In this document: piece by piece, positions 2,545 to 11,201 of the stretch
Layout of the letters: every line of letters starts with the position of its first letter
Numbering within the stretch: position 1 is the stretch's first letter
Virus record (IMG/VR): IMGVR_UViG_2703718860_000015
Reading direction: 5' to 3' (one strand)
DNA: 12,886 bases
Origin: a virus
Taxonomy: Duplodnaviria > Heunggongvirae > Uroviricota > Caudoviricetes
Notes under the pieces: generated by a model
Databases searched by the model: none
What the model saw: only the letters and a program-made list of their open reading frames with translations
What the model was told of the DNA's origin: nothing
Made by a program: the position numbers and the translations under genes

Positions 2545-3342
2545 TTAATGAACATTCGTCGCCGAAAACGAGTCTGTATCATTAGTGCGATGCAGTCTCT
2601 GCAAAGGATCTTGTTGATAAAATTGGCAGAAACGTTGCCACAATGAAGGGAAACGAGGAGCAAAAAGTTCTGGGGCGCTAAAGAAATATTCAGAAAGTAC
2701 GGCAAAACATTCAGCAGGATCACTGGCAGCATAAGCATCAATGCTCGCCGCATTCTCGCCAACCAATTCGATTTCTTCCTGAATGTTGTTCATTGCAGCA
2801 TGAAGATCGTGTTCCCAGCCAGCAACCTCACGCAACGGAATAAAGGGAACTCCGCTGGCGCGATCGCCGTTACGGGTGTCCAGCTTATGAGCGACTTCAT
2901 GAATAATCAGGTTAAAACCAGAAGCATCAAAAGAATCTTGTATATCCAACCAGTTCAAAACGATAGGCCCTTGCTGCCAGCTCTGACCTGACTGAACAAT
3001 ACGTTGGTTATGCACCAGACCGATATCGTCTTCCCATTCATCATCGACCACAAATGGCGCAGGATAAATTAAGACTTCATGAAAACCATCCAGCCATTCC
3101 AGTCCTAACTCCAGAACGGGTAGGCAAAATAGAAGTGCTATCCGGCAGCTTCTTAATGAATCCAGTTCAAAGCCCTGTAAAGGAACAAGCCGCTTTTGCT
3201 GTAAAAAACGTTCGGCAAGAGTGACTAATTTGCTTTGTTCCTGTTCCGTCAGACACGTTAAAAGGGGGATCGATAGTGCTTCCTGCCAGGGAAGGGCAGT
3301 TTGATGTGCTGATTCTTGTACTTTCCAGGGCCACTTAATCAT
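2545..3342 (-). CDS. mtfA: MtfA (Mlc titration factor A, YeeI), 265 aa
   Basis: ORF-track protein contains [28 protein letters not shown]...HEVAH (zinc-metallopeptidase motif). The track ORF starts at GTG 3381; I place the start at the in-frame ATG at 3342 (MIKWPWK), matching my recollection of the K-12 MtfA N-terminus. Stop TAA at 2545-2547. Confidence 0.93.
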
Positions 3343-4864: not shown

Positions 4865-7309
4865 TTAAAAATCAGCCTGATTTGGGAACAGTTTTTGCCA
4901 GATAGCTGAAACGTATTTTGCCTGGTAACGCGCATCGTGCAGGGCATTATGGCGTTCACCCTCAAATGTGGTGACGTTGCGGGCATCGAAATCCATCACC
5001 AACCCCAGAGCGACCATCGTTCTTACATCGCGATCATTGGTGTAACGCCACGGGCAGGGGATCTCCTGCCGTTCATATGAACGGCGTAAAATCACGTTGT
5101 CGAAGTTGGCTCCATTTCCCCAGACCTGAACAAAAAACTCACCGGAGTTTTCGTCTATAAATTCCCGTAATTGTAAAAGCGCATCATCAAGCGGTATTCG
5201 ATCAGCTAAAATGGCGGCACGGGCTTCGCCAGAGCGTTGAAGCCACCATTCGATGGTGCTTATGTCTACAGTGCCGCCACATGTACCCATATCAATTATT
5301 TTGCTGAATTCAGGCCCCTGCTCTCCGGTTTGTGGATCGAAAAATACAGCGCCTATTGAGGCTATTGGCGCATCAGGATTTTTGCCCATTGTTTCAAGGT
5401 CAATCATCAGATGGTGCCACAACCTGCTGGTGGATGTGATTTCACGATGACCGTTCACCTTAATTAAGGGATTTGCTGTCTCGCCTGTTTCATTATTGCC
5501 ATTGGCATGTTGATCGCCTTCGGTGCACTCCTTGTTCGGGAGTCCGGCACTTTCCATTTCCTCCGGATCTTTTTCCCGGGCTTCATCCTGGCTTTCTTCG
5601 TTGAATGTCTCCTGGTATGTTGCGTCGCCCATCACCGCGCCACAGTCAGGACAGTTGCCGCCGCCGGTCTGACCGCAGGCTGTGCAGACTTTTTCCGGTT
5701 CCTGTTGCGCTACTGGTTCAGGCTGTTTCGTTTCTGGCTCGTTTTGTTGCGCATTTGGACTGTGTTGTTCCGCTTTATGGCCTTTCTGTTCCGTTTCTTG
5801 CTGGTTATGGTTCACAGAATCGCGGGTTTCAATCCCCTTCACCCATTTTGGATCATTCGGGTCGCTAATCCCTTCAACAAATTCTCCGTGAGAAGCAGCC
5901 AGTAATTTATCTGCATCGACAGGATTTTTGGGTGGAATGTTTTTCCTGGCTTCATAGAGTTCTGCACGCAGTTTCTGATATTTCGCATCAACAGAATTTA
6001 TCTGTGGCTGAGCATCCATCGACTGCGTGTCCTGATTATGTTCAGTTGTATCCGGTTCCACTGCTTCAGTCGTTGCCTGTTCATCTGCCATTGCGCCAGA
6101 TGGCTGCGGTTTTTCTTCATCATCCTGTTTTCCTTCTTTTGTTACACGCTGCGGCATTGGAGCAGAGGAGCGACCGCAGGCAATATCCACGATTTCTGGA
6201 TCAGGGTTGGCATGGTCGGTTTCGGTCAGTACTTTGTTCAGATATTCGGTAACACGGTGGGGAGTAGCCTCGATACCAATTGGTGCTTCTTTCACGGACG
6301 CAACCACTATCGCGCGGGAATAATCCAGGTGACCAGGCATGGCGATGAATTTGTCACGAAAAACAGAAAAGGGCGGCTTATTCTCTGAAACGATTTCTTC
6401 AATGCGTTTGGCGTGTGCCGGATGTGGATTGTAAATATCGATGTCCATTGAACGGGCCAGAACGCCAGCGGCAACGTCACGTTCCACTGACGCATCATCG
6501 TGGACAAAACCTTCACCGCGATCGGTAAGAATTCCTCCGCCAGCATTAGCGCCGGATGGCGTGCGGCTGATGCGTAAAACACGATTTCCTTTCATCCACT
6601 CTTTTGTCAGCAGACCTCGATCGGTATAGTCAGCGTCCAGGTATGCTTCGAAAAAAGCAGTCATTAACCCCAGACTGGAATTAACGGGATTAGGGAAAAC
6701 TTTGTCTGTGTCGCGTACCAGTTTGTGAAGGTCGCGAATCTCCAGCGGGTCGAGCAGCTTTGTGTTGTGGGAAATAGCCAGGGCAGTAACAGCAGGCAGT
6801 TCTTCAGCTCGTGCGATATGTAATGCCTGAAGTTCTTCCCGTGAAACGTGCGTTACCGGTTTTTCGCTGCCATGTTGCGCAAGCCAGCGAATGGGCAGTT
6901 CCTGACCGGAAATCGGCAGGAGCATATTATCCTCAATCTCAGCCATGTCTTCGCCATTGACGTTGGTATTGTCAGTGCTGGCTGGTTTGTCCTGAACTGA
7001 GGGGGAAGGCGCTATAAATATCATTGTGATGCCATCTTCTCCGCCTTTTTCATAGCGGTTGCAGAATTCGGTATCAAACACACCTTCAGGCGGCAGGTCA
7101 TTAACAATGGGCAAATTCACGCGAACAGGTTTTTTGAAATCCTCTTCGTCAAATCCAGCATCGTCCATTGCGACAACACCCCGTGATATTGCAACCGATA
7201 ATTTTTTTGCTGTGCGCCAGTAAAAACCGCCTTTAATCCCAAGGCGTTTTCTGACTTTGTCATTTTTGGCTTCGTAATACAGTGCAATTTCTTCTTTATC
7301 AGTGCTCAT
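4865..7309 (-). CDS. Large phage exonuclease (exodeoxyribonuclease VIII / RecE-like N-terminal region, C-terminal DnaQ-type DEDDh 3'-5' exonuclease domain), 814 aa
   Basis: ATG at 7309 preceded by GAGG. C-terminal about 190 aa carry Exo I (MIDLETMG), Exo II ([13 protein letters not shown]) and Exo III (HNALHDARY) motifs. A CxxC-x9-CxxC zinc-ribbon-like motif ([18 protein letters not shown]) and a long acidic low-complexity linker precede it. Occupies the exo/recE position of the early-left operon. Confidence 0.85.
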
Positions 7310-7401
7310 TGATAAACCTCATAACTATTTTAAGGTTGTACGAATCCCTGCCATTGCTGGCATACTTAATCAACGGGTATGGCGTTAATATGGCTGGCGG
7401 G

Positions 7402-7590
7402 TTATCCAGCCGGTATTTCGTTATTCAGGTACAGCGATACTTTGTTTAACGGGAGACATTCACCGGAAATTTTTTGCTCGTCTCTTGCCTGATGGCAGGA
7501 TTCTTTACTGGCATAAATTCCGGTAATCACATTCTGTGGCTCACCCGTTATAAGAAAAACAGTCATTACCAGTGCAAATGCAGAAGTCAC
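7402..7590 (-). CDS. Hypothetical small protein with hydrophobic N-terminal segment (62 aa from GTG 7590, or 54 aa from ATG 7566)
   Basis: ORF-track protein MTSAFALVMTVFLITGEPQNV... The GTG start overlaps the upstream ORF stop (GTGA, 7590..7587). No recognisable homolog from memory. Start codon uncertain. Confidence 0.4.
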   Translation of the reverse strand: MTSAFALVMTVFLITGEPQNVITGIYASKESCHQARDEQKISGECLPLNKVSLYLNNEIPAG

Positions 7591-7775
7591 TGCTGCCCCC
7601 CGAAAATACCAAGTTTAAGAAGGGCAATTCTGGAGAGTATGGAATTATCATTGAGAAGATAAGGCTCATATTTTCTCATCTTAATGGCATCTTCAGTAAA
7701 CTCCCGGTTACTGAGCAGAACACCAATATCAAAACACCCTTCAGACGTATTAACGTTTGGTAATAACGTTTCCAT
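7587..7775 (-). CDS. Hypothetical small phage protein, 62 aa
   Basis: ATG at 7775 with GAGGA 7-8 nt upstream; protein METLLPNVNTSEGCFDIGVLLSNREFTEDAIKMRKYEPYLL.... Coupled to the downstream small ORF. Confidence 0.45.
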   Translation of the reverse strand: METLLPNVNTSEGCFDIGVLLSNREFTEDAIKMRKYEPYLLNDNSILSRIALLKLGIFGGQQ

Positions 7776-8576
7776 TATCGCGTCCTCAACAATGAATTTT
7801 GTGATGTGGTGCCTGGTGCCTCCAGGTGACGTTAACCAGTTAACAATTAACGCCGGAATACAGAATCACCCATAACGCTGTTTTTAGCTTTAACTGTTCC
7901 GCGTGCGCTTAGCCGCATTCACCGCATCACAAAATACACTTTAAAAATGGCGGATATCCATTTCCACCGAATCACCAGAAAAGTGATAACAGAGGTTGTT
8001 GTGGCGGTGTTGTCACTCAGGCGTATGGTCAACCTGACAACCCGGTGCATTTTCTGGAGCAATGGAGGAAGCCCCAGCCATACTTACCGCCGCGCCATTT
8101 CGCGGATTGCCACAACCGGAAGCGCACGATCGAATTACATTTAACGACGACATATACAGAGAGACTAACTTCGCCGAGCGCTTTCGTGTTATGCCCTGAC
8201 TTTTCAGGGATATGTTCTTTCAGTAAACTGTCAGTGCCGGATTCTTATCCGTGTCCGGCGCACGACCACACGTGACAGCGTGTTGGTCTCCATCATTAAC
8301 CCGGAACCTCTATGGAGGATAATATGCAAGTTGATATTATTAGCCCTGTAATGATCCATATGCTTGCGCACATCAGGCTCTTCTGGCACTAATCAACGTC
8401 GGAAAAATTGAAAATTCCGCTATGTGCTTTGAAGAGTTGAAACAACTTGTGCGCTTGTATGAATATATTAAAAAACAATCACAAGATACGGCGTAATATT
8501 TAAAATACTTTCTGTTATATGGGCCTGCTATAATGCTGGCCCATATTTCTAACCCCTCTATAAGAAAAACATATTA

Positions 8577-8990
8577 TTATGGCAATTTCTTCGGTAGCTC
8601 TTCAGAATGCTGAGTTGTTTTAATTATGGTTTTTAAATAATCATCGCTTTCATATTTGAGTGATTCTATGGCAATCCAGATGCGGGCTTTGGTGCCTGCA
8701 TTTGGTTCCAGTTGCTGTAGACGTTTTGCATCTTCCAGTAGTAAGGCGATAACGTGTTTCAGCTTCTCATCATTCGCTTGATTCTTGTTTTCAGGCGAAT
8801 TTTGTCCGCCGAATGGCCACTTTTCTTCGTACAGCCCGATAAAGGTTCGACGCACGTTACCGGATATATTATCGATGGTTTCTTTTTCTACGGTACTCAG
8901 GTCAAGAGTCGCCAGTTGAGAACGAACTATATTCGCTGCCATTTCCTGGAATGGTACTGGTAAATCTTTAAATTCCATCGTCAACCTCAT
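8577..8990 (-). CDS. Hypothetical early-left protein, 137 aa (133 aa if started at ATG 8978)
   Basis: ORF MRLTMEFKDLPVPFQEMAANIVRSQLATLDLS.... ATG 8990 overlaps the stop of the upstream 50-codon ORF (TGATG); the alternative ATG at 8978 has a GAGG 6 nt upstream. Sits where lambda carries N / early-left accessory genes; no homolog recognised. Confidence 0.6.
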   Translation of the reverse strand: MRLTMEFKDLPVPFQEMAANIVRSQLATLDLSTVEKETIDNISGNVRRTFIGLYEEKWPFGGQNSPENKNQANDEKLKHVIALLLEDAKRLQQLEPNAGTKARIWIAIESLKYESDDYLKTIIKTTQHSEELPKKLP

Positions 8991-9142
8991 CAGTCAGTGT
9001 TTCTGGCTAACCAGCGACGCGCGCCAGCTTCGGTTTTAAACTTTTTACTTTTGGTATACGTCATCGCGGTAAACGTGCCGTCCTGGTTGGGAAACACGCC
9101 GCATACCAGAGATTCGTTGTTGCCAAGATTGAGCGTATCCAT
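8990..9142 (-). CDS. Hypothetical small protein, 50 aa, first gene after the candidate PL
   Basis: Not in the ORF track (under 60 aa); translated by hand: ATG 9142..9140 preceded by GAGG (about 5 nt spacing), protein MDTLNLGNNESLVCGVFPNQDGTFTAMTYTKSKKFKTEAGARRWLARNTD, stop TGA 8992..8990 overlapping the next gene's ATG. Confidence 0.35.
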   Translation of the reverse strand: MDTLNLGNNESLVCGVFPNQDGTFTAMTYTKSKKFKTEAGARRWLARNTD

Positions 9143-9319
9143 GTTGACCTCATTTACCCTTAACGCCGGGTCGCGGAACTAAAAACCTGCTGCGCTGTTA
9201 TACAAAGTATTCCCGCCGTCATGTTCATACGCCTCGGGCTGGCTACTTAACCCCTGACCACTGCCGGGTAACTCGAAGTATTGCCTGGCGTTCTGTGGGG
9301 CGGGGGGGTTGATGAATGA

Positions 9320-9368
9320 ACAATACCACTACTATTTAATTATGTAAATAGCAGTGCTATTATCGTGG
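9320..9368 (-). promoter_or_regulatory. Candidate OL/PL: leftward promoter with overlapping operator palindrome
   Basis: Minus strand: -35 TTTACA (9348..9343), 17-nt spacer, -10 TATTGT (9325..9320). A perfect 6+1+6 palindrome ATAGCAGTGCTAT (9348-9360) overlaps the -35. The motif TGCTATTA..TCGTG (9356-9368) recurs in the cI/cro intergenic region. Confidence 0.35.
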
Positions 9369-9372
9369 CAAG

Positions 9373-9393
9373 AAAAAAACCACCCGAAGGTGG
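9373..9393 (-). terminator. Rho-independent terminator ending the repressor-antitoxin-toxin operon
   Basis: Minus-strand RNA CCACC-UUCG-GGUGG followed by UUUUUUU (forward aaaaaaa 9373-9379), 17 nt downstream of the toxin stop codon. Confidence 0.75.
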
Positions 9394-9409
9394 TTGTTGA
9401 CAGGAAGGA

Positions 9410-9700
9410 TTAACAGGTTTTGTTTGGATACTGTCTTCGTGAGTGAACTACATTTACGATCTCGATGTTAGATGCTGTTACTCGGTAAAGTATTATGTAG
9501 TTAGGATGAGTCACTATCTCACGAAGACTTGGAACTCTTTCGCTCGGTGGGTACAGATAAGGGTGTTCAGTAAGTGACAAAACTGATGTTTCAATGCGTA
9601 TTTTTAGTCTACGTGCAGCGGGAGGGTTTTCCTTAGCAATATAGGCTACGATCTGACGTAAATCATCACGTGCAGAAGGTAGCCATAAAATGGGCAGCAT
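9410..9700 (-). CDS. parE: ParE-family type II toxin (ParE2-like), 96 aa
   Basis: Protein MLPILWLPSARDDLRQIVAYIAKENPPAARRLKIRIETSVLSLTEHPYLY...YIILYRVTASNIEIVNVVHSRRQ has the ParE/RelE-fold pattern. ATG 9700 overlaps the antitoxin stop (TAATG). Confidence 0.9.
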   Translation of the reverse strand: MLPILWLPSARDDLRQIVAYIAKENPPAARRLKIRIETSVLSLTEHPYLYPPSERVPSLREIVTHPNYIILYRVTASNIEIVNVVHSRRQYPNKTC

Positions 9701-9891
9701 TACTCACTCCTGTTCGTTGCAGCTAATTGAGCAATAAGGTTTTCCATTTCAGCCATTACTTCGTCATGTGGAATTGCAGGACGGGGATCTGAGAGGCTTG
9801 CTGCCACTTTGGCTCGCAACCATTCGTTATAGCTGTTTTCTTGTTCGACTGTTTCAAATTCAGAAATTATCGGGGAAAGGGCTGTACTCAT
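9700..9891 (-). CDS. paaA: PaaA-type antitoxin of ParE (PaaA2-like), 63 aa
   Basis: Small acidic protein MSTALSPIISEFETVEQENSYNEWLRAKVAASLSDPRPAIPHDEV... directly upstream of and coupled to the ParE toxin; GAGGAGG 7 nt before the ATG at 9891. Resembles the PaaA2 antitoxin of E. coli O157 prophages as I recall it. Confidence 0.85.
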   Translation of the reverse strand: MSTALSPIISEFETVEQENSYNEWLRAKVAASLSDPRPAIPHDEVMAEMENLIAQLAATNRSE

Positions 9892-9908
9892 GTTTTGACC
9901 TCCTCAGA

Positions 9909-10409
9909 TTAGGCGCGACGACCCTTTTGCGCGGCTAGCCATCGCGCAACGATTTCTTCAATTGATTCTTTTTTCTCCTTCATTTCCTTAAGCATTTTCT
10001 CTTTATCTTCTTTGGGGAAAGCCCTGAACGTCTGGAGCAAATCCCGCTCCATGGGGTCTATATTAAACGGAAGTTCGTTTTCCGATTGTTCCATATCTGC
10101 AGATATAGTGACAACATTGTCCTCCCCAGATTCTTGGGGATACATCCTTACAATTTGTAACAACTCGGCCATATCTGGTCTGATTGACTCGGGAGGAACT
10201 TGCAGCAACCCTGCGAACTTGATAACAGCCTCAAGATTTAAAGGTGTCTGACCATTTAGATAATGGCTTACAGCTCCCTGTGTCGAAAATCCCAGAATTT
10301 CTGCCGCACGCTCTTGGGTTAACCCTAGTTGATTTTTTTTCGCCGTCCAGATTTCTTTCAGTCTCTGGGCGGCTTGCAGGTCGATCTCTGACAGGGATTT
10401 TCTTTTCAT
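9909..10409 (-). CDS. paaR: cI-like prophage repressor, XRE-family HTH regulator (PaaR2-like), 166 aa, no S24 peptidase domain
   Basis: N-terminal HTH (LTQERAAEILGFSTQGAVSHYLNGQ) and a C-terminal charged helical region (KEDKEKMLKEMKEKKESIEE); no LexA-like Ser/Lys autocleavage domain. Divergent from the cro-like gene, and 17 nt upstream of the antitoxin gene on the same strand. Confidence 0.88.
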   Translation of the reverse strand: MKRKSLSEIDLQAAQRLKEIWTAKKNQLGLTQERAAEILGFSTQGAVSHYLNGQTPLNLEAVIKFAGLLQVPPESIRPDMAELLQIVRMYPQESGEDNVVTISADMEQSENELPFNIDPMERDLLQTFRAFPKEDKEKMLKEMKEKKESIEEIVARWLAAQKGRRA

Positions 10410-10516
10410 ACCTTCAATTCTAATAAGATTATTAATCTCTTTGAAATAGTGATGCTATTTACTTTTAAAAATAACAATGCTATTAATGATCGTGATGACA
10501 TCACATGAGGTGAACA
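10410..10516. promoter_or_regulatory. Divergent promoter/operator region (OR-like) between repressor and cro-like gene
   Basis: AT-rich 107-bp intergenic region with palindromes TAATAAGATTATTA (10421-10434) and GTGATGACATCAC (10492-10504), repeated ATGCTATT motifs (10452-10459, 10477-10484), and a candidate rightward promoter (-35 TTTACT 10458-10463, -10 TATTAA 10481-10486) ahead of the cro-like GAGGTGA ribosome-binding site. Confidence 0.5.
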
Positions 10517-10792
10517 ATGAATCTTGGAGAATATTTGCATCATTCCGGTATAACTCAGAAGCATTTTGCTGAAATTGTTGGGGTAACCCAAGGGATGGTA
10601 AGCCATGTCATTACCGGACGGGCGAAACTTACGGGGGAAAAAATTTTACGCTGGTGCGAAGCAACAGGCTGGATAGTAACTCCGCACGAGATTGATAGCA
10701 GTACTTATCCCAACCCAACCGACGGCTTACCTGTCGAGTATCAGGCTAACACACAACCAGAGGCGGGGGTGATTCATGAAAATCAAGCATGA
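10517..10792 (+). CDS. ydaS: Cro-like HTH regulator (YdaS-like), 91 aa
   Basis: ATG at 10517 with GAGGTGA upstream; HTH signature ITQKHFAEIVGVTQGMVSHVITGR; divergent from the repressor gene. Confidence 0.85.
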   Translation: MNLGEYLHHSGITQKHFAEIVGVTQGMVSHVITGRAKLTGEKILRWCEATGWIVTPHEIDSSTYPNPTDGLPVEYQANTQPEAGVIHENQA

Positions 10793-11201
10793 ACACATCC
10801 GCATGGCAATGAATGCCTGGGCGTATCCAGACGGTGAGAAAGTTCCAGCAGCTGAAATAGCCCGGACTTATTTCGAGCTGGGGATGACGTTCCCGGAACT
10901 GTACGACGACAGCCATCCGGAAGCCCTGGCTCGTAATACCCAGAAAATTTTCCGCTGGGTGGAGAAGGACACGTCTGATGCTGTTGAAAAAATTCAGGCG
11001 CTGTTACCGGCGATCGAAAAGGCGATGCCGCCTTTGCTGGTGGCCCGTATGCGCAGTCACAGTTCTGAATATTACCGGGAGATCGTCGAACGACGGGATC
11101 GGCTGGTGAAAGATGTGGATGATTTTGTCGCTGTAGCGATCGCCTGGGGCACCCTGACTAACAGTGGTGGTCAGCCTGGTAATGCAGTTGTTGTGCATTG
11201 A
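10776..11201 (+). CDS. ydaT: YdaT-like protein (functional CII equivalent in Rac/CP-933P-type prophages), 141 aa
   Basis: Protein begins MKIKHEHIRMAMNAWAYPDGEK, as YdaT-family proteins do; overlaps the 3' end of the cro-like gene by 17 nt; sits in the cII position. Confidence 0.85.
   Translation: MKIKHEHIRMAMNAWAYPDGEKVPAAEIARTYFELGMTFPELYDDSHPEALARNTQKIFRWVEKDTSDAVEKIQALLPAIEKAMPPLLVARMRSHSSEYYREIVERRDRLVKDVDDFVAVAIAWGTLTNSGGQPGNAVVVH

Follow-up and report, generated by a model that had tools for sequence, protein, structure and literature searches.

The window, which is the whole stretch of 12,886 nucleotides analysed here, contains 136 ORFs of 30 aa or longer in its 12.9 kb, and short ORFs are frequent by chance. 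Four minus-strand ORFs lie where the original prediction had placed them, at 8990-9142 (50 aa), 8577-8990 (137 aa), 7587-7775 (62 aa), and 7402-7590 (62 aa). The dN/dS values of all four genes range from 0.16 to 0.45, indicating purifying selection, and three of them have full-length Pfam matches; thus these ORFs are real genes. The original prediction could name none of the four proteins. Based on Pfam, NCBIfam, and identity to K-12, three of them are DicB, YdfD (DUF1482), and YdfA (DUF1391), and RefSeq records with 100% identity over 7300-9400 were already annotated with dicB, DUF1482, and DUF1391.

Upstream of these genes, a promoter scan and an operator pattern search identified a predicted PL-type promoter with two operators (9320-9361, minus strand). 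The -35 element TTTACA (9348-9343) and the -10 element TATTGT (9325-9320) are separated by a spacer of 17 nt, and the operators, both ATAG-N5-CTAT, are at 9348-9360 and 9323-9335, overlapping the -35 and -10 elements. The same pattern also occurs twice at the repressor/cro promoter; the spacing is 25 bp at both promoters, in mirror image. Moreover, the PL-type promoter stretch is 70% complementary to positions 10445-10484 at the repressor/cro promoter, with which it makes up an inverted repeat of 40 nt. The immunity repressor (9909-10409, minus strand) has an HTH_3 domain (PF01381, 9.9e-10) and a DicA-like C-terminus, with 27% identity to DicA over the C-terminal 51 aa (E = 2e-5). It is presumed to control the operon via the predicted operators common to its own promoter region and PL. 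None of the searches named an N homologue.

The first gene after the repressor-controlled promoter is a ydfA homologue (8990-9142, minus strand). Its product matches PF07151 (DUF1391) at 1.5e-29 and 101.8 bits, against a gathering score of 27.3, and is 86% identical to YdfA of O157:H7 EDL933 and 84% identical to that of K-12, with a dN/dS of 0.16 against the latter. There is a GAGG 6 nt upstream of the ydfA ATG. One member of the DUF1391 family is labelled 'YdaF family protein' by its source, and the functions of K-12 ydfABC have been stated to be unknown (PMC11430063). The original prediction saw translational coupling between this gene and the next at 8990. The letters of the junction are indeed CTGACTGATGAGG, but the overlap does not hold, since the larger gene likely starts at the ATG at 8978 and encodes 133 aa. 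A GAGG precedes 8978 by 6 nt while nothing resembling a Shine-Dalgarno sequence precedes 8990, the PGAP gene call is the 133-aa form, and all relatives examined start with M-E/Q/K-F/L-K-D/G-L-P. With the start at 8978, ydfA and the 133-aa gene are 11 nt apart and do not overlap.

The 133-aa protein (8577-8978, minus strand; the former 137-aa ORF) is hypothetical and matches phrog_1363 (3.7e-41). It consists of two modules, an N-module of residues 1-55 and a C-module of about residues 69-113. Both are widespread among E. coli and Stx prophages, and each was also found separately heading many small prophage ORFs. Compared with a copy with 90% DNA identity, the dN/dS is 0.22 in both halves of the gene. 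The protein has no match in Pfam, NCBIfam, or PADLOC and only unnamed phrogs in PHROG, PDB profile searches with both modules returned nothing below E = 0.2, and every relative is labelled hypothetical. The AF2 model is all-helical with a mean pLDDT of 56 (about 77 for the N-terminal helical hairpin alone), and at this quality it is unsuited to further fold searches. Foldseek of the model against viral structures (BFVD) gave no significant match, and the sole return was a 52-aa homologue of the N-module. We rejected the idea that the protein is a fused or diverged YdfB or YdfC, because the hhalign probability was at most 0.2% and because the gene lies alongside ydfB and ydfC in other prophages. 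A polymorphic effector with a cognate convergent immunity gene was also considered, as the tails and the opposite-strand ORFs differ among proteins whose N-module is conserved; this was not supported, since one and the same C-module is followed by one convergent gene in the window and by a different one in another locus (L006). Our best guess is that the protein is a small helical host-binding accessory of the moron type, put together by recombination from two mobile modules shared among enterobacterial prophages, and it may be a new host-targeting or anti-defence effector.

The small ORF that converges on the 133-aa gene (8312-8496, plus strand) is intact in a relative (57 aa, WP_001376375.1). 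In the window, one C is missing between 8352 and 8353, and the resulting frameshift leaves two pieces, of 26 and 24 aa. The ATG of the ORF at 8324 is preceded by a GGAGG Shine-Dalgarno sequence at a distance of 5 nt. Between this ORF and the 133-aa gene, a hairpin can be read from the sequence (ATATGGGCC ... GGCCCATAT, 8517-8546), and it lacks an evident T-run on the minus strand.

Blastn aligned the 800-bp "gap" that separates the two gene pairs with the K-12 ydfC-dicF-dicB spacer at 84% identity (8264-7671). The original prediction had missed the dicF-type RNA locus that lies here. A conserved leader (7982-8264, minus strand; blastn, alignment A1), homologous to the K-12 ydfC-dicF spacer, includes the region that yields the 190-nt DicF precursor (from about 8122). 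It is followed by a short dicF-like allele, TTTCTGGTGATTCGGTGGAAATGGATATCCGCC plus ATTTTT (7943-7981, minus strand; alignment A1 and terminator scan). The allele consists of a 5' decamer, UUUCUGGUGA, which is identical to that of DicF and in the homologous position, and a terminator hairpin (7968-7949) with a 6-bp stem and then ATTTTT, which forms the 3' end. The fold has an energy of -14.3 kcal/mol (z = -2.7). Compared with those of EDL933 and K-12, the terminator is weaker, as its stem includes a G-U pair and its T-run is preceded by an A. Even with E allowed up to 10, the window gave no match to Rfam DicF (RF00039), and neither did two other short-allele loci (L003 of EDL933, and L005), while the positive controls scored 76.7 bits (K-12) and 61.1 bits (L006).

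The 3' region of DicF pairs with the ftsZ ribosome-binding site (PMC5069750). In the short allele, which is 19 nt shorter, the ftsZ-pairing segment is replaced by a short loop. Its predicted duplex with the ftsZ start region (-15 to -17 kcal/mol) is no better than shuffled, whereas that of K-12 DicF reaches -38.5 kcal/mol. The allele retains the xylR-type 5' seed and the terminator, and the segment that targets ftsZ and pykA is lost. Short alleles are present in 442 of the 5426 complete E. coli genomes (about 8%), including O157:H7 EDL933, and in O157:H7 they add to three to five canonical dicF copies. They are unannotated in the genomes that carry them, and our literature searches found no description of them. 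Judged from the sequence, the short allele most likely serves as an attenuator and processing site, and is at most a small RNA with a reduced target set. We consider it possible, but doubtful, that it is not a decayed DicF but a functional small RNA in its own right.

The dicB leader (7776-7942, minus strand) is nearly invariant among the window, K-12, and EDL933 (alignment A1) and contains a long-range stem in which 7920-7938 pairs with 7793-7811, a 19-nt inverted repeat that is 89% complementary. The only Rfam match of note, STnc100, covers this leader below threshold (7743-7950, 34.5 bits, E = 1.2e-5). The following gene (7587-7775, minus strand) is dicB, encoding a cell-division inhibitor of 62 aa. 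Its product matches PF05358 over residues 1-62 of 62 (1.4e-36; 124.4 bits, cut-off 27) and NF049927 at 111.2 bits (cut-off 100). The synteny is also that of dicB, as the gene is downstream of the dicF leader and its stop codon overlaps the start of ydfD. DicB is 61% identical to K-12 DicB and 90% identical to that of EDL933, with dN/dS of 0.35 and 0.11, respectively. K-12 DicB is a MinC- and ZipA-dependent division inhibitor and a ManYZ-dependent phage-exclusion factor (PMC6832061), and we infer that the DicB in the window probably acts in the same ways.

The last of the four genes (7402-7590, minus strand) starts with GTG and encodes a YdfD homologue of 62 aa, which matches PF07358 (DUF1482) over profile positions 1-57 of 57 (1.6e-15; 57.2 bits, gathering score 25). 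It is 48% identical to K-12 YdfD and 92% identical to that of EDL933, and the dN/dS against K-12 is 0.45. The hydrophobic N-terminus that the original prediction noticed is present (MTSAFALVMTVFLITG; MTSAFALVMTVFL in the comparison among homologues). C32 and C45 are invariant, and the N-terminal segment and the C-terminal EIPAG motif are conserved with K-12. K-12 YdfD is a lysis protein reported to bind IspG, and its cysteines have been noted as conserved (PMC8835842). The YdfD allele here would be expected to bind IspG as well. The predicted junction at 7590 was borne out, as it reads CAGCAGTGACTTC, and the same 4-nt stop/start overlap of dicB and ydfD is kept in K-12 Qin (CAATGAAT) and in the prophage of O157:H7 EDL933 (CAATGACT). 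Since this overlap is conserved despite protein identities of only 48-61% to K-12, it is not due to chance.

Downstream of ydfD is an exonuclease gene (4865-7309, minus strand; PGAP annotation) encoding 814 aa, with an N-terminal Exonuc_VIII domain (PF06630) and a C-terminal Rv2179c-like 3'-5' exonuclease domain (PF16473). It matches the NCBIfam exodeoxyribonuclease VIII model over residues 1-616 with 1078 bits, which is under the cut-off of 1269. The gene has the position of the K-12 pseudogene ydfE and is transcribed in the same direction, towards xis and int. The full order is therefore promoter and operators, ydfA, the 133-aa cargo gene, the dicF leader with the short dicF allele and its terminator, the dicB leader, dicB, ydfD, the exonuclease gene, xis, and int. 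The prophage is inserted at a tRNA-Ser gene beside mtfA/yeeJ.

Taken together, the interval 7402-9142 is very probably an operon of the dicBF type that forms the early-left transcription unit of a Qin-like lambdoid prophage. Its content is largely ordinary, a copy of a well-studied operon of E. coli prophages with YdfA, a shortened DicF RNA locus, DicB, and YdfD, and one protein is without a name. The original prediction was right about the lambdoid early-left context, and this repressor-controlled operon carries functions in host takeover and exclusion. Its main candidates for uncharacterised functions are reduced to the 133-aa protein, the sole unnamed one, as DicB, YdfD, and YdfA belong to named families, and DicB and YdfD are homologous to characterised prophage early proteins, a finding that the original prediction itself had named as evidence against it.

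The functions of DicB, DicF, and YdfD and the RNA processing of the operon have been described (PMC6832061, PMC5069750, PMC8835842, PMC10448788). Following the K-12 literature, the HTH repressor would hold the operon off in the lysogen, and derepression would give one polycistronic RNA. RNA that reads through would then express dicB and the translationally coupled ydfD. DicB would bind MinC and bring it to the septum via ZipA, so that FtsZ rings are blocked, and via MinC it would also block ManYZ-dependent entry of lambda-like phages. YdfD would bind IspG and cause lysis of dividing cells, which DicB would mask.

It is also conceivable, but unlikely, that DicB and YdfD have diverged so far in the window that their partners are no longer MinC/ZipA and IspG and the operon works in another way than that of K-12. 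The C-terminal halves are far from K-12 (residues 32-62 of DicB are strongly diverged, and YdfD is 48% identical overall), and the loss of the ftsZ-pairing region from the dicF allele beside them shows that the locus is able to change targets. However, the first 31 residues of DicB hardly vary, the cysteines, N-terminal segment, and EIPAG motif of YdfD are conserved, and both proteins match their families in full length above the cut-offs. Even less probable is that the operon is an inactive, decaying remnant whose ORFs are intact by chance or recent descent. The frameshifted convergent 57-aa ORF, the GTG start of ydfD, and the location of the counterpart K-12 operon within a cryptic prophage are consistent with decay, as is the dicF hairpin, which has two changes compared with the common short allele and whose exact sequence is in only 4 genomes. 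Against this, dN/dS is well below 1 in all four genes, the dicB/ydfD overlap and the Shine-Dalgarno sites are conserved, the window has intact genes for integrase, xis, the repressor, cro, and replication, and the operon has a match in 4748 of 5426 E. coli genomes. Finally, that the four are novel accessory proteins without relatives, and the best takeover or anti-defence candidates in the window, is very improbable and already refuted for three of the four, because DicB and YdfD match in full length above curated cut-offs with conserved synteny and YdfA is 84% identical to its K-12 counterpart, so that, although YdfA has a family name only, this view holds only for the 133-aa protein, for which Pfam, NCBIfam, PADLOC, and PDB gave no match and whose relatives are all labelled hypothetical.

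The practical value of the dicBF assignment is a correction, as the interval should be labelled a dicBF operon and not four unknown proteins. What remains new is the short dicF allele, which is unannotated, and the cargo protein of 133 aa, whose two-module helical family is frequent in the early regions of Stx and other prophages and is a lead. If the short allele is functional, DicF-type metabolic regulation would be separated from the control of division in these prophages, and should it be expressed, a paralogue with a different range of targets is overlooked when "DicF copies" are counted in EHEC. The operon is also modular. The slot that separates ydfA from the dicF leader is filled by ydfB and ydfC in K-12, by these two plus the 133-aa gene in other strains, and by the 133-aa gene alone in the window, and EDL933 has nothing there.

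The dicBF operon of K-12 Qin has the order ydfA-ydfB-ydfC-dicF-dicB-ydfD-ydfE. In the window, ydfA, the dicF leader, dicB, ydfD, and the exonuclease gene are ordered and oriented as in that operon. Also shared are the 84% DNA identity over the dicF/dicB leader, the 4-nt dicB/ydfD overlap, and a location shortly downstream of an HTH repressor whose C-terminus is DicA-like, with operators preceding the operon. Unlike K-12 Qin, the window lacks ydfB and ydfC and has the 133-aa gene and the frameshifted convergent ORF in their slot, its dicF is the short allele that lacks the ftsZ-pairing segment, a PaaA2/ParE toxin-antitoxin pair lies between the repressor and the promoter, and the exonuclease gene is intact, while ydfE is a pseudogene in K-12. 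The EDL933 prophage carries the same short dicF allele and similar proteins (DicB 90%, YdfD 92%, and YdfA 86% identical), but its ydfA is followed directly by the dicF leader, and its repressor belongs to the LexA family and is not DicA-like. No lambda-named families were among the Pfam, NCBIfam, and PHROG matches. The lambda PL operon (kil, cIII, ral, sieB), which the original prediction had brought up, has the same position and follows the same logic, being a leftward, repressor-controlled early operon that ends at xis and int. Like the operon in the window, it encodes both a division inhibitor, with Kil as the counterpart of DicB, and an exclusion function.

The original prediction placed four small early-left proteins of no recognizable identity here, in two translationally coupled pairs. 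All four ORFs were present in the ORF listing of the window, on the minus strand at 8990-9142, 8577-8990, 7587-7775, and 7402-7590, and the observation was confirmed overall. Nevertheless, three of the proteins can be recognized from their sequences. The product of 7587-7775(-) had a full-length Pfam DicB match (1.4e-36) and exceeded the curated cut-off of NCBIfam CellDivInhibDicB (111.2 against 100 bits). We assign it as DicB; its identity to the K-12 protein is 61%, and residues 1-31 hardly differ. The product of 7402-7590(-) matched the full DUF1482 profile (57.2 bits, cut-off 25) and is 48% identical to K-12 YdfD, with both cysteines and the hydrophobic N-terminus kept; we assign it as a YdfD homologue. 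The product of 8990-9142(-), assigned as a YdfA homologue, matched DUF1391 (101.8 bits, cut-off 27.3), a family with one member carrying the source label "YdaF family protein", and is 84% identical to K-12 YdfA. Over 7300-9400, the window is essentially identical to four complete E. coli genomes, in which the RefSeq labels are DUF1391, hypothetical protein, dicB, DUF1482, and exonuclease. The prediction was thus right about the context but wrong in its main point, since clear homology to characterized early proteins was found for DicB and YdfD. Of the four, only the 133-aa protein encoded within 8577-8990(-) cannot be named.

At the GTGA junction (7590), the dicB stop and the ydfD start overlap by 4 nt, as predicted. 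The same overlap occurs in K-12 Qin and in a prophage of O157:H7 EDL933, although the proteins are only 48-61% identical to those of K-12, and its retention despite this divergence is far beyond chance expectation. The TGATG sequence at 8990 is also present, but translation of the larger gene probably begins 12 nt downstream of it, at 8978, and yields 133 aa. This start is favored by a Shine-Dalgarno-like GAGG 6 nt upstream of 8978, by the PGAP annotation of the 133-aa form, and by the N-terminus M-E/Q/K-F/L-K-D/G-L-P shared by all relatives examined; no Shine-Dalgarno-like sequence was found upstream of 8990. Since short ORFs are frequent by chance (136 ORFs of at least 30 aa in the window), coding constraint was tested by dN/dS. 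The values against K-12 were 0.16 for ydfA, 0.35 for dicB, and 0.45 for ydfD. The 133-aa gene gave 0.22 against a copy 90% identical in DNA, with both halves of the gene similar. These values indicate that all four ORFs are real genes.

The 133-aa protein had no family match in Pfam, NCBIfam, or PADLOC and no match in profile searches of PDB sequences. An exhaustive HMMER search revealed a fusion of two modules, an N-module (residues 1-55, from MEFKDLP to about GLY) and a C-module (residues 69-113, containing ELKHVIALLLEDAKRLQQ.EPNAGT.ARIW). Each heads many small enterobacterial prophage ORFs with unrelated tails. Of 5426 genomes, 168 have the full-length gene and 934 have the N-module. The gene is not a substitute for ydfB or ydfC, as it co-occurs with both and is unrelated to them. 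It follows ydfA-ydfB-ydfC in other prophages, while its slot is empty in EDL933, and thus it is optional cargo. The AF2 model is all-helical and confident for the N-terminal hairpin only, and a search with it against viral structures gave just a 52-aa homologue of the N-module, which was uninformative. The YdfA model has three strands and a helix (pLDDT 69), and a structure search with it gave no credible neighbor. Our best guess, weakly held, is that YdfA and the 133-aa protein are both small host-binding accessory proteins. A small ORF with a strong GGAGG Shine-Dalgarno, 8312-8496(+), is convergent to the 133-aa gene. It is intact in E. coli strain 4 (57 aa, WP_001376375.1) but frameshifted in the window, where one C is missing between 8352 and 8353. 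Two other prophage loci have different convergent ORFs of 91-92 aa in the same place (L006, 2862-3140; L007, 2799-3074), and these overlap the N-module gene at its 3' end.

The ~800 bp between the gene pairs had been treated as empty, but 8264-7671 is 84% identical to the K-12 dicF spacer, which stretches from the ydfC end across dicF and into dicB. The dicF position holds a shortened allele (7981-7943(-)), 19 nt shorter than K-12 DicF in the alignment. Its first ten bases (UUUCUGGUGA) and its stem base (GGYGG/CCGCC) are those of DicF, whereas an 8-nt loop takes the place of the internal segment with which K-12 DicF pairs to the ftsZ ribosome-binding site, so that the segment for ftsZ and pykA pairing is absent. 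The predicted fold is a terminator hairpin with AUUUUU behind it. The Rfam DicF model (RF00039) did not match it even at E up to 10; the same tool gave 76.7 bits for K-12 DicF and 61.1 bits for the DicF of another prophage. Duplex energies with target start regions were estimated by a crude calculation that ignores intramolecular structure, with shuffles as control. K-12 DicF gave -38.5 kcal/mol with ftsZ, -37.2 with pykA, and -33.7 with xylR. The short allele gave -15 to -17 with ftsZ and -19 to -20 with pykA, no better than shuffles, and -23 to -25 with xylR, where 2-4% of shuffles were as good. These energies fit the published division of labor between the two DicF ends (PMC5069750).

Among 5426 complete E. 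coli genomes, the short allele is present but unannotated in 442, EDL933 included, and canonical DicF is present in 4011, with 3-5 copies in sampled O157:H7 strains. The O157:H7 records listed have one copy of the short allele, e.g., EDL933 (3001-3057 of its dicB locus, L003); a further locus (L005) also has it. In the window's copy, the terminator is additionally weakened by two changes: one stem pair is G-U, and an A precedes the T-run. In the window, the dicF element is probably mainly an attenuator and processing site before dicB. The dicB leader (7776-7950(-)) hardly differs between the window, K-12, and EDL933, so a role in the control of dicB translation or of RNA processing is possible. 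It contains a 19-nt long-range stem (7920-7938 with 7793-7811) ending 18 nt upstream of the dicB start, and Rfam gave a sub-threshold match there to STnc100, a Salmonella sRNA family (34.5 bits, E = 1.2e-5). In the related prophage locus L006 (3463-3937), a Rha-family regulator gene interrupts the leader; this locus also has canonical DicF, a second dicB fragment that is truncated, and matches to the Rfam families isrK and C4 antisense RNA.

A promoter scan found a promoter-like TTTACA-17-TATTGT at 9348-9320(-), upstream of ydfA, where the terminator of a PaaA2/ParE toxin-antitoxin pair immediately precedes it. It is overlapped by two ATAG-N5-CTAT sites with a spacing of 25 bp, and the same two sites with equal spacing overlap a TTTACT-17-TATTAA promoter before a cro-like gene. 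Together, the clusters make up a 40-nt inverted repeat flanking the repressor block, the arrangement of OL and OR in lambdoid immunity regions. The repressor (9909-10409(-)) combines an HTH_3 domain with a DicA-related C-terminus; no peptidase domain was detected. We infer that it binds these predicted operators. The repressor is followed on the same strand by the PaaA2-type antitoxin and ParE toxin (9410-10409(-)). This block presumably resembles the three-gene paaR2-paaA2-parE2 module of O157:H7 prophages, in which case one transcript would carry the repressor, antitoxin, and toxin genes. At the cII position, 10776-11201(+) encodes a YdaT-family protein (PF06254) and overlaps the end of the cro-like gene, a YdaS/YdaT arrangement as in Rac-type immunity regions.

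The working of the operon has been shown in K-12 and is inferred for the window. [quoted passage not shown] Likewise, the window repressor would hold the predicted promoter off, and a single RNA from upstream of ydfA would be processed around dicF, with read-through reaching dicB and ydfD. DicB, once bound to MinC, delivers it to the septum by way of ZipA and so blocks Z rings; again acting through MinC, it blocks the ManYZ-dependent entry of lambda-type phages (PMC6832061). YdfD binds IspG and lyses dividing cells, and co-expression of DicB prevents lysis (PMC8835842). The window DicB and YdfD would be expected to act in the same ways, with YdfD lysis masked by DicB, and the tight dicB-ydfD coupling fits this protection.

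After ydfD, an 814-aa gene (4865-7309(-)) encodes an N-terminal RecE-type region (Exonuc_VIII) and a C-terminal Rv2179c-like 3'-5' exonuclease domain, while the counterpart position in K-12 holds the pseudogene ydfE. The short dicF allele and the two-module 133-aa cargo protein are the two modest leads left here. The locus as a whole is a member of a well-described operon family, and the variability of dicBF-type operons among prophages has been noted before (PMC5069750).
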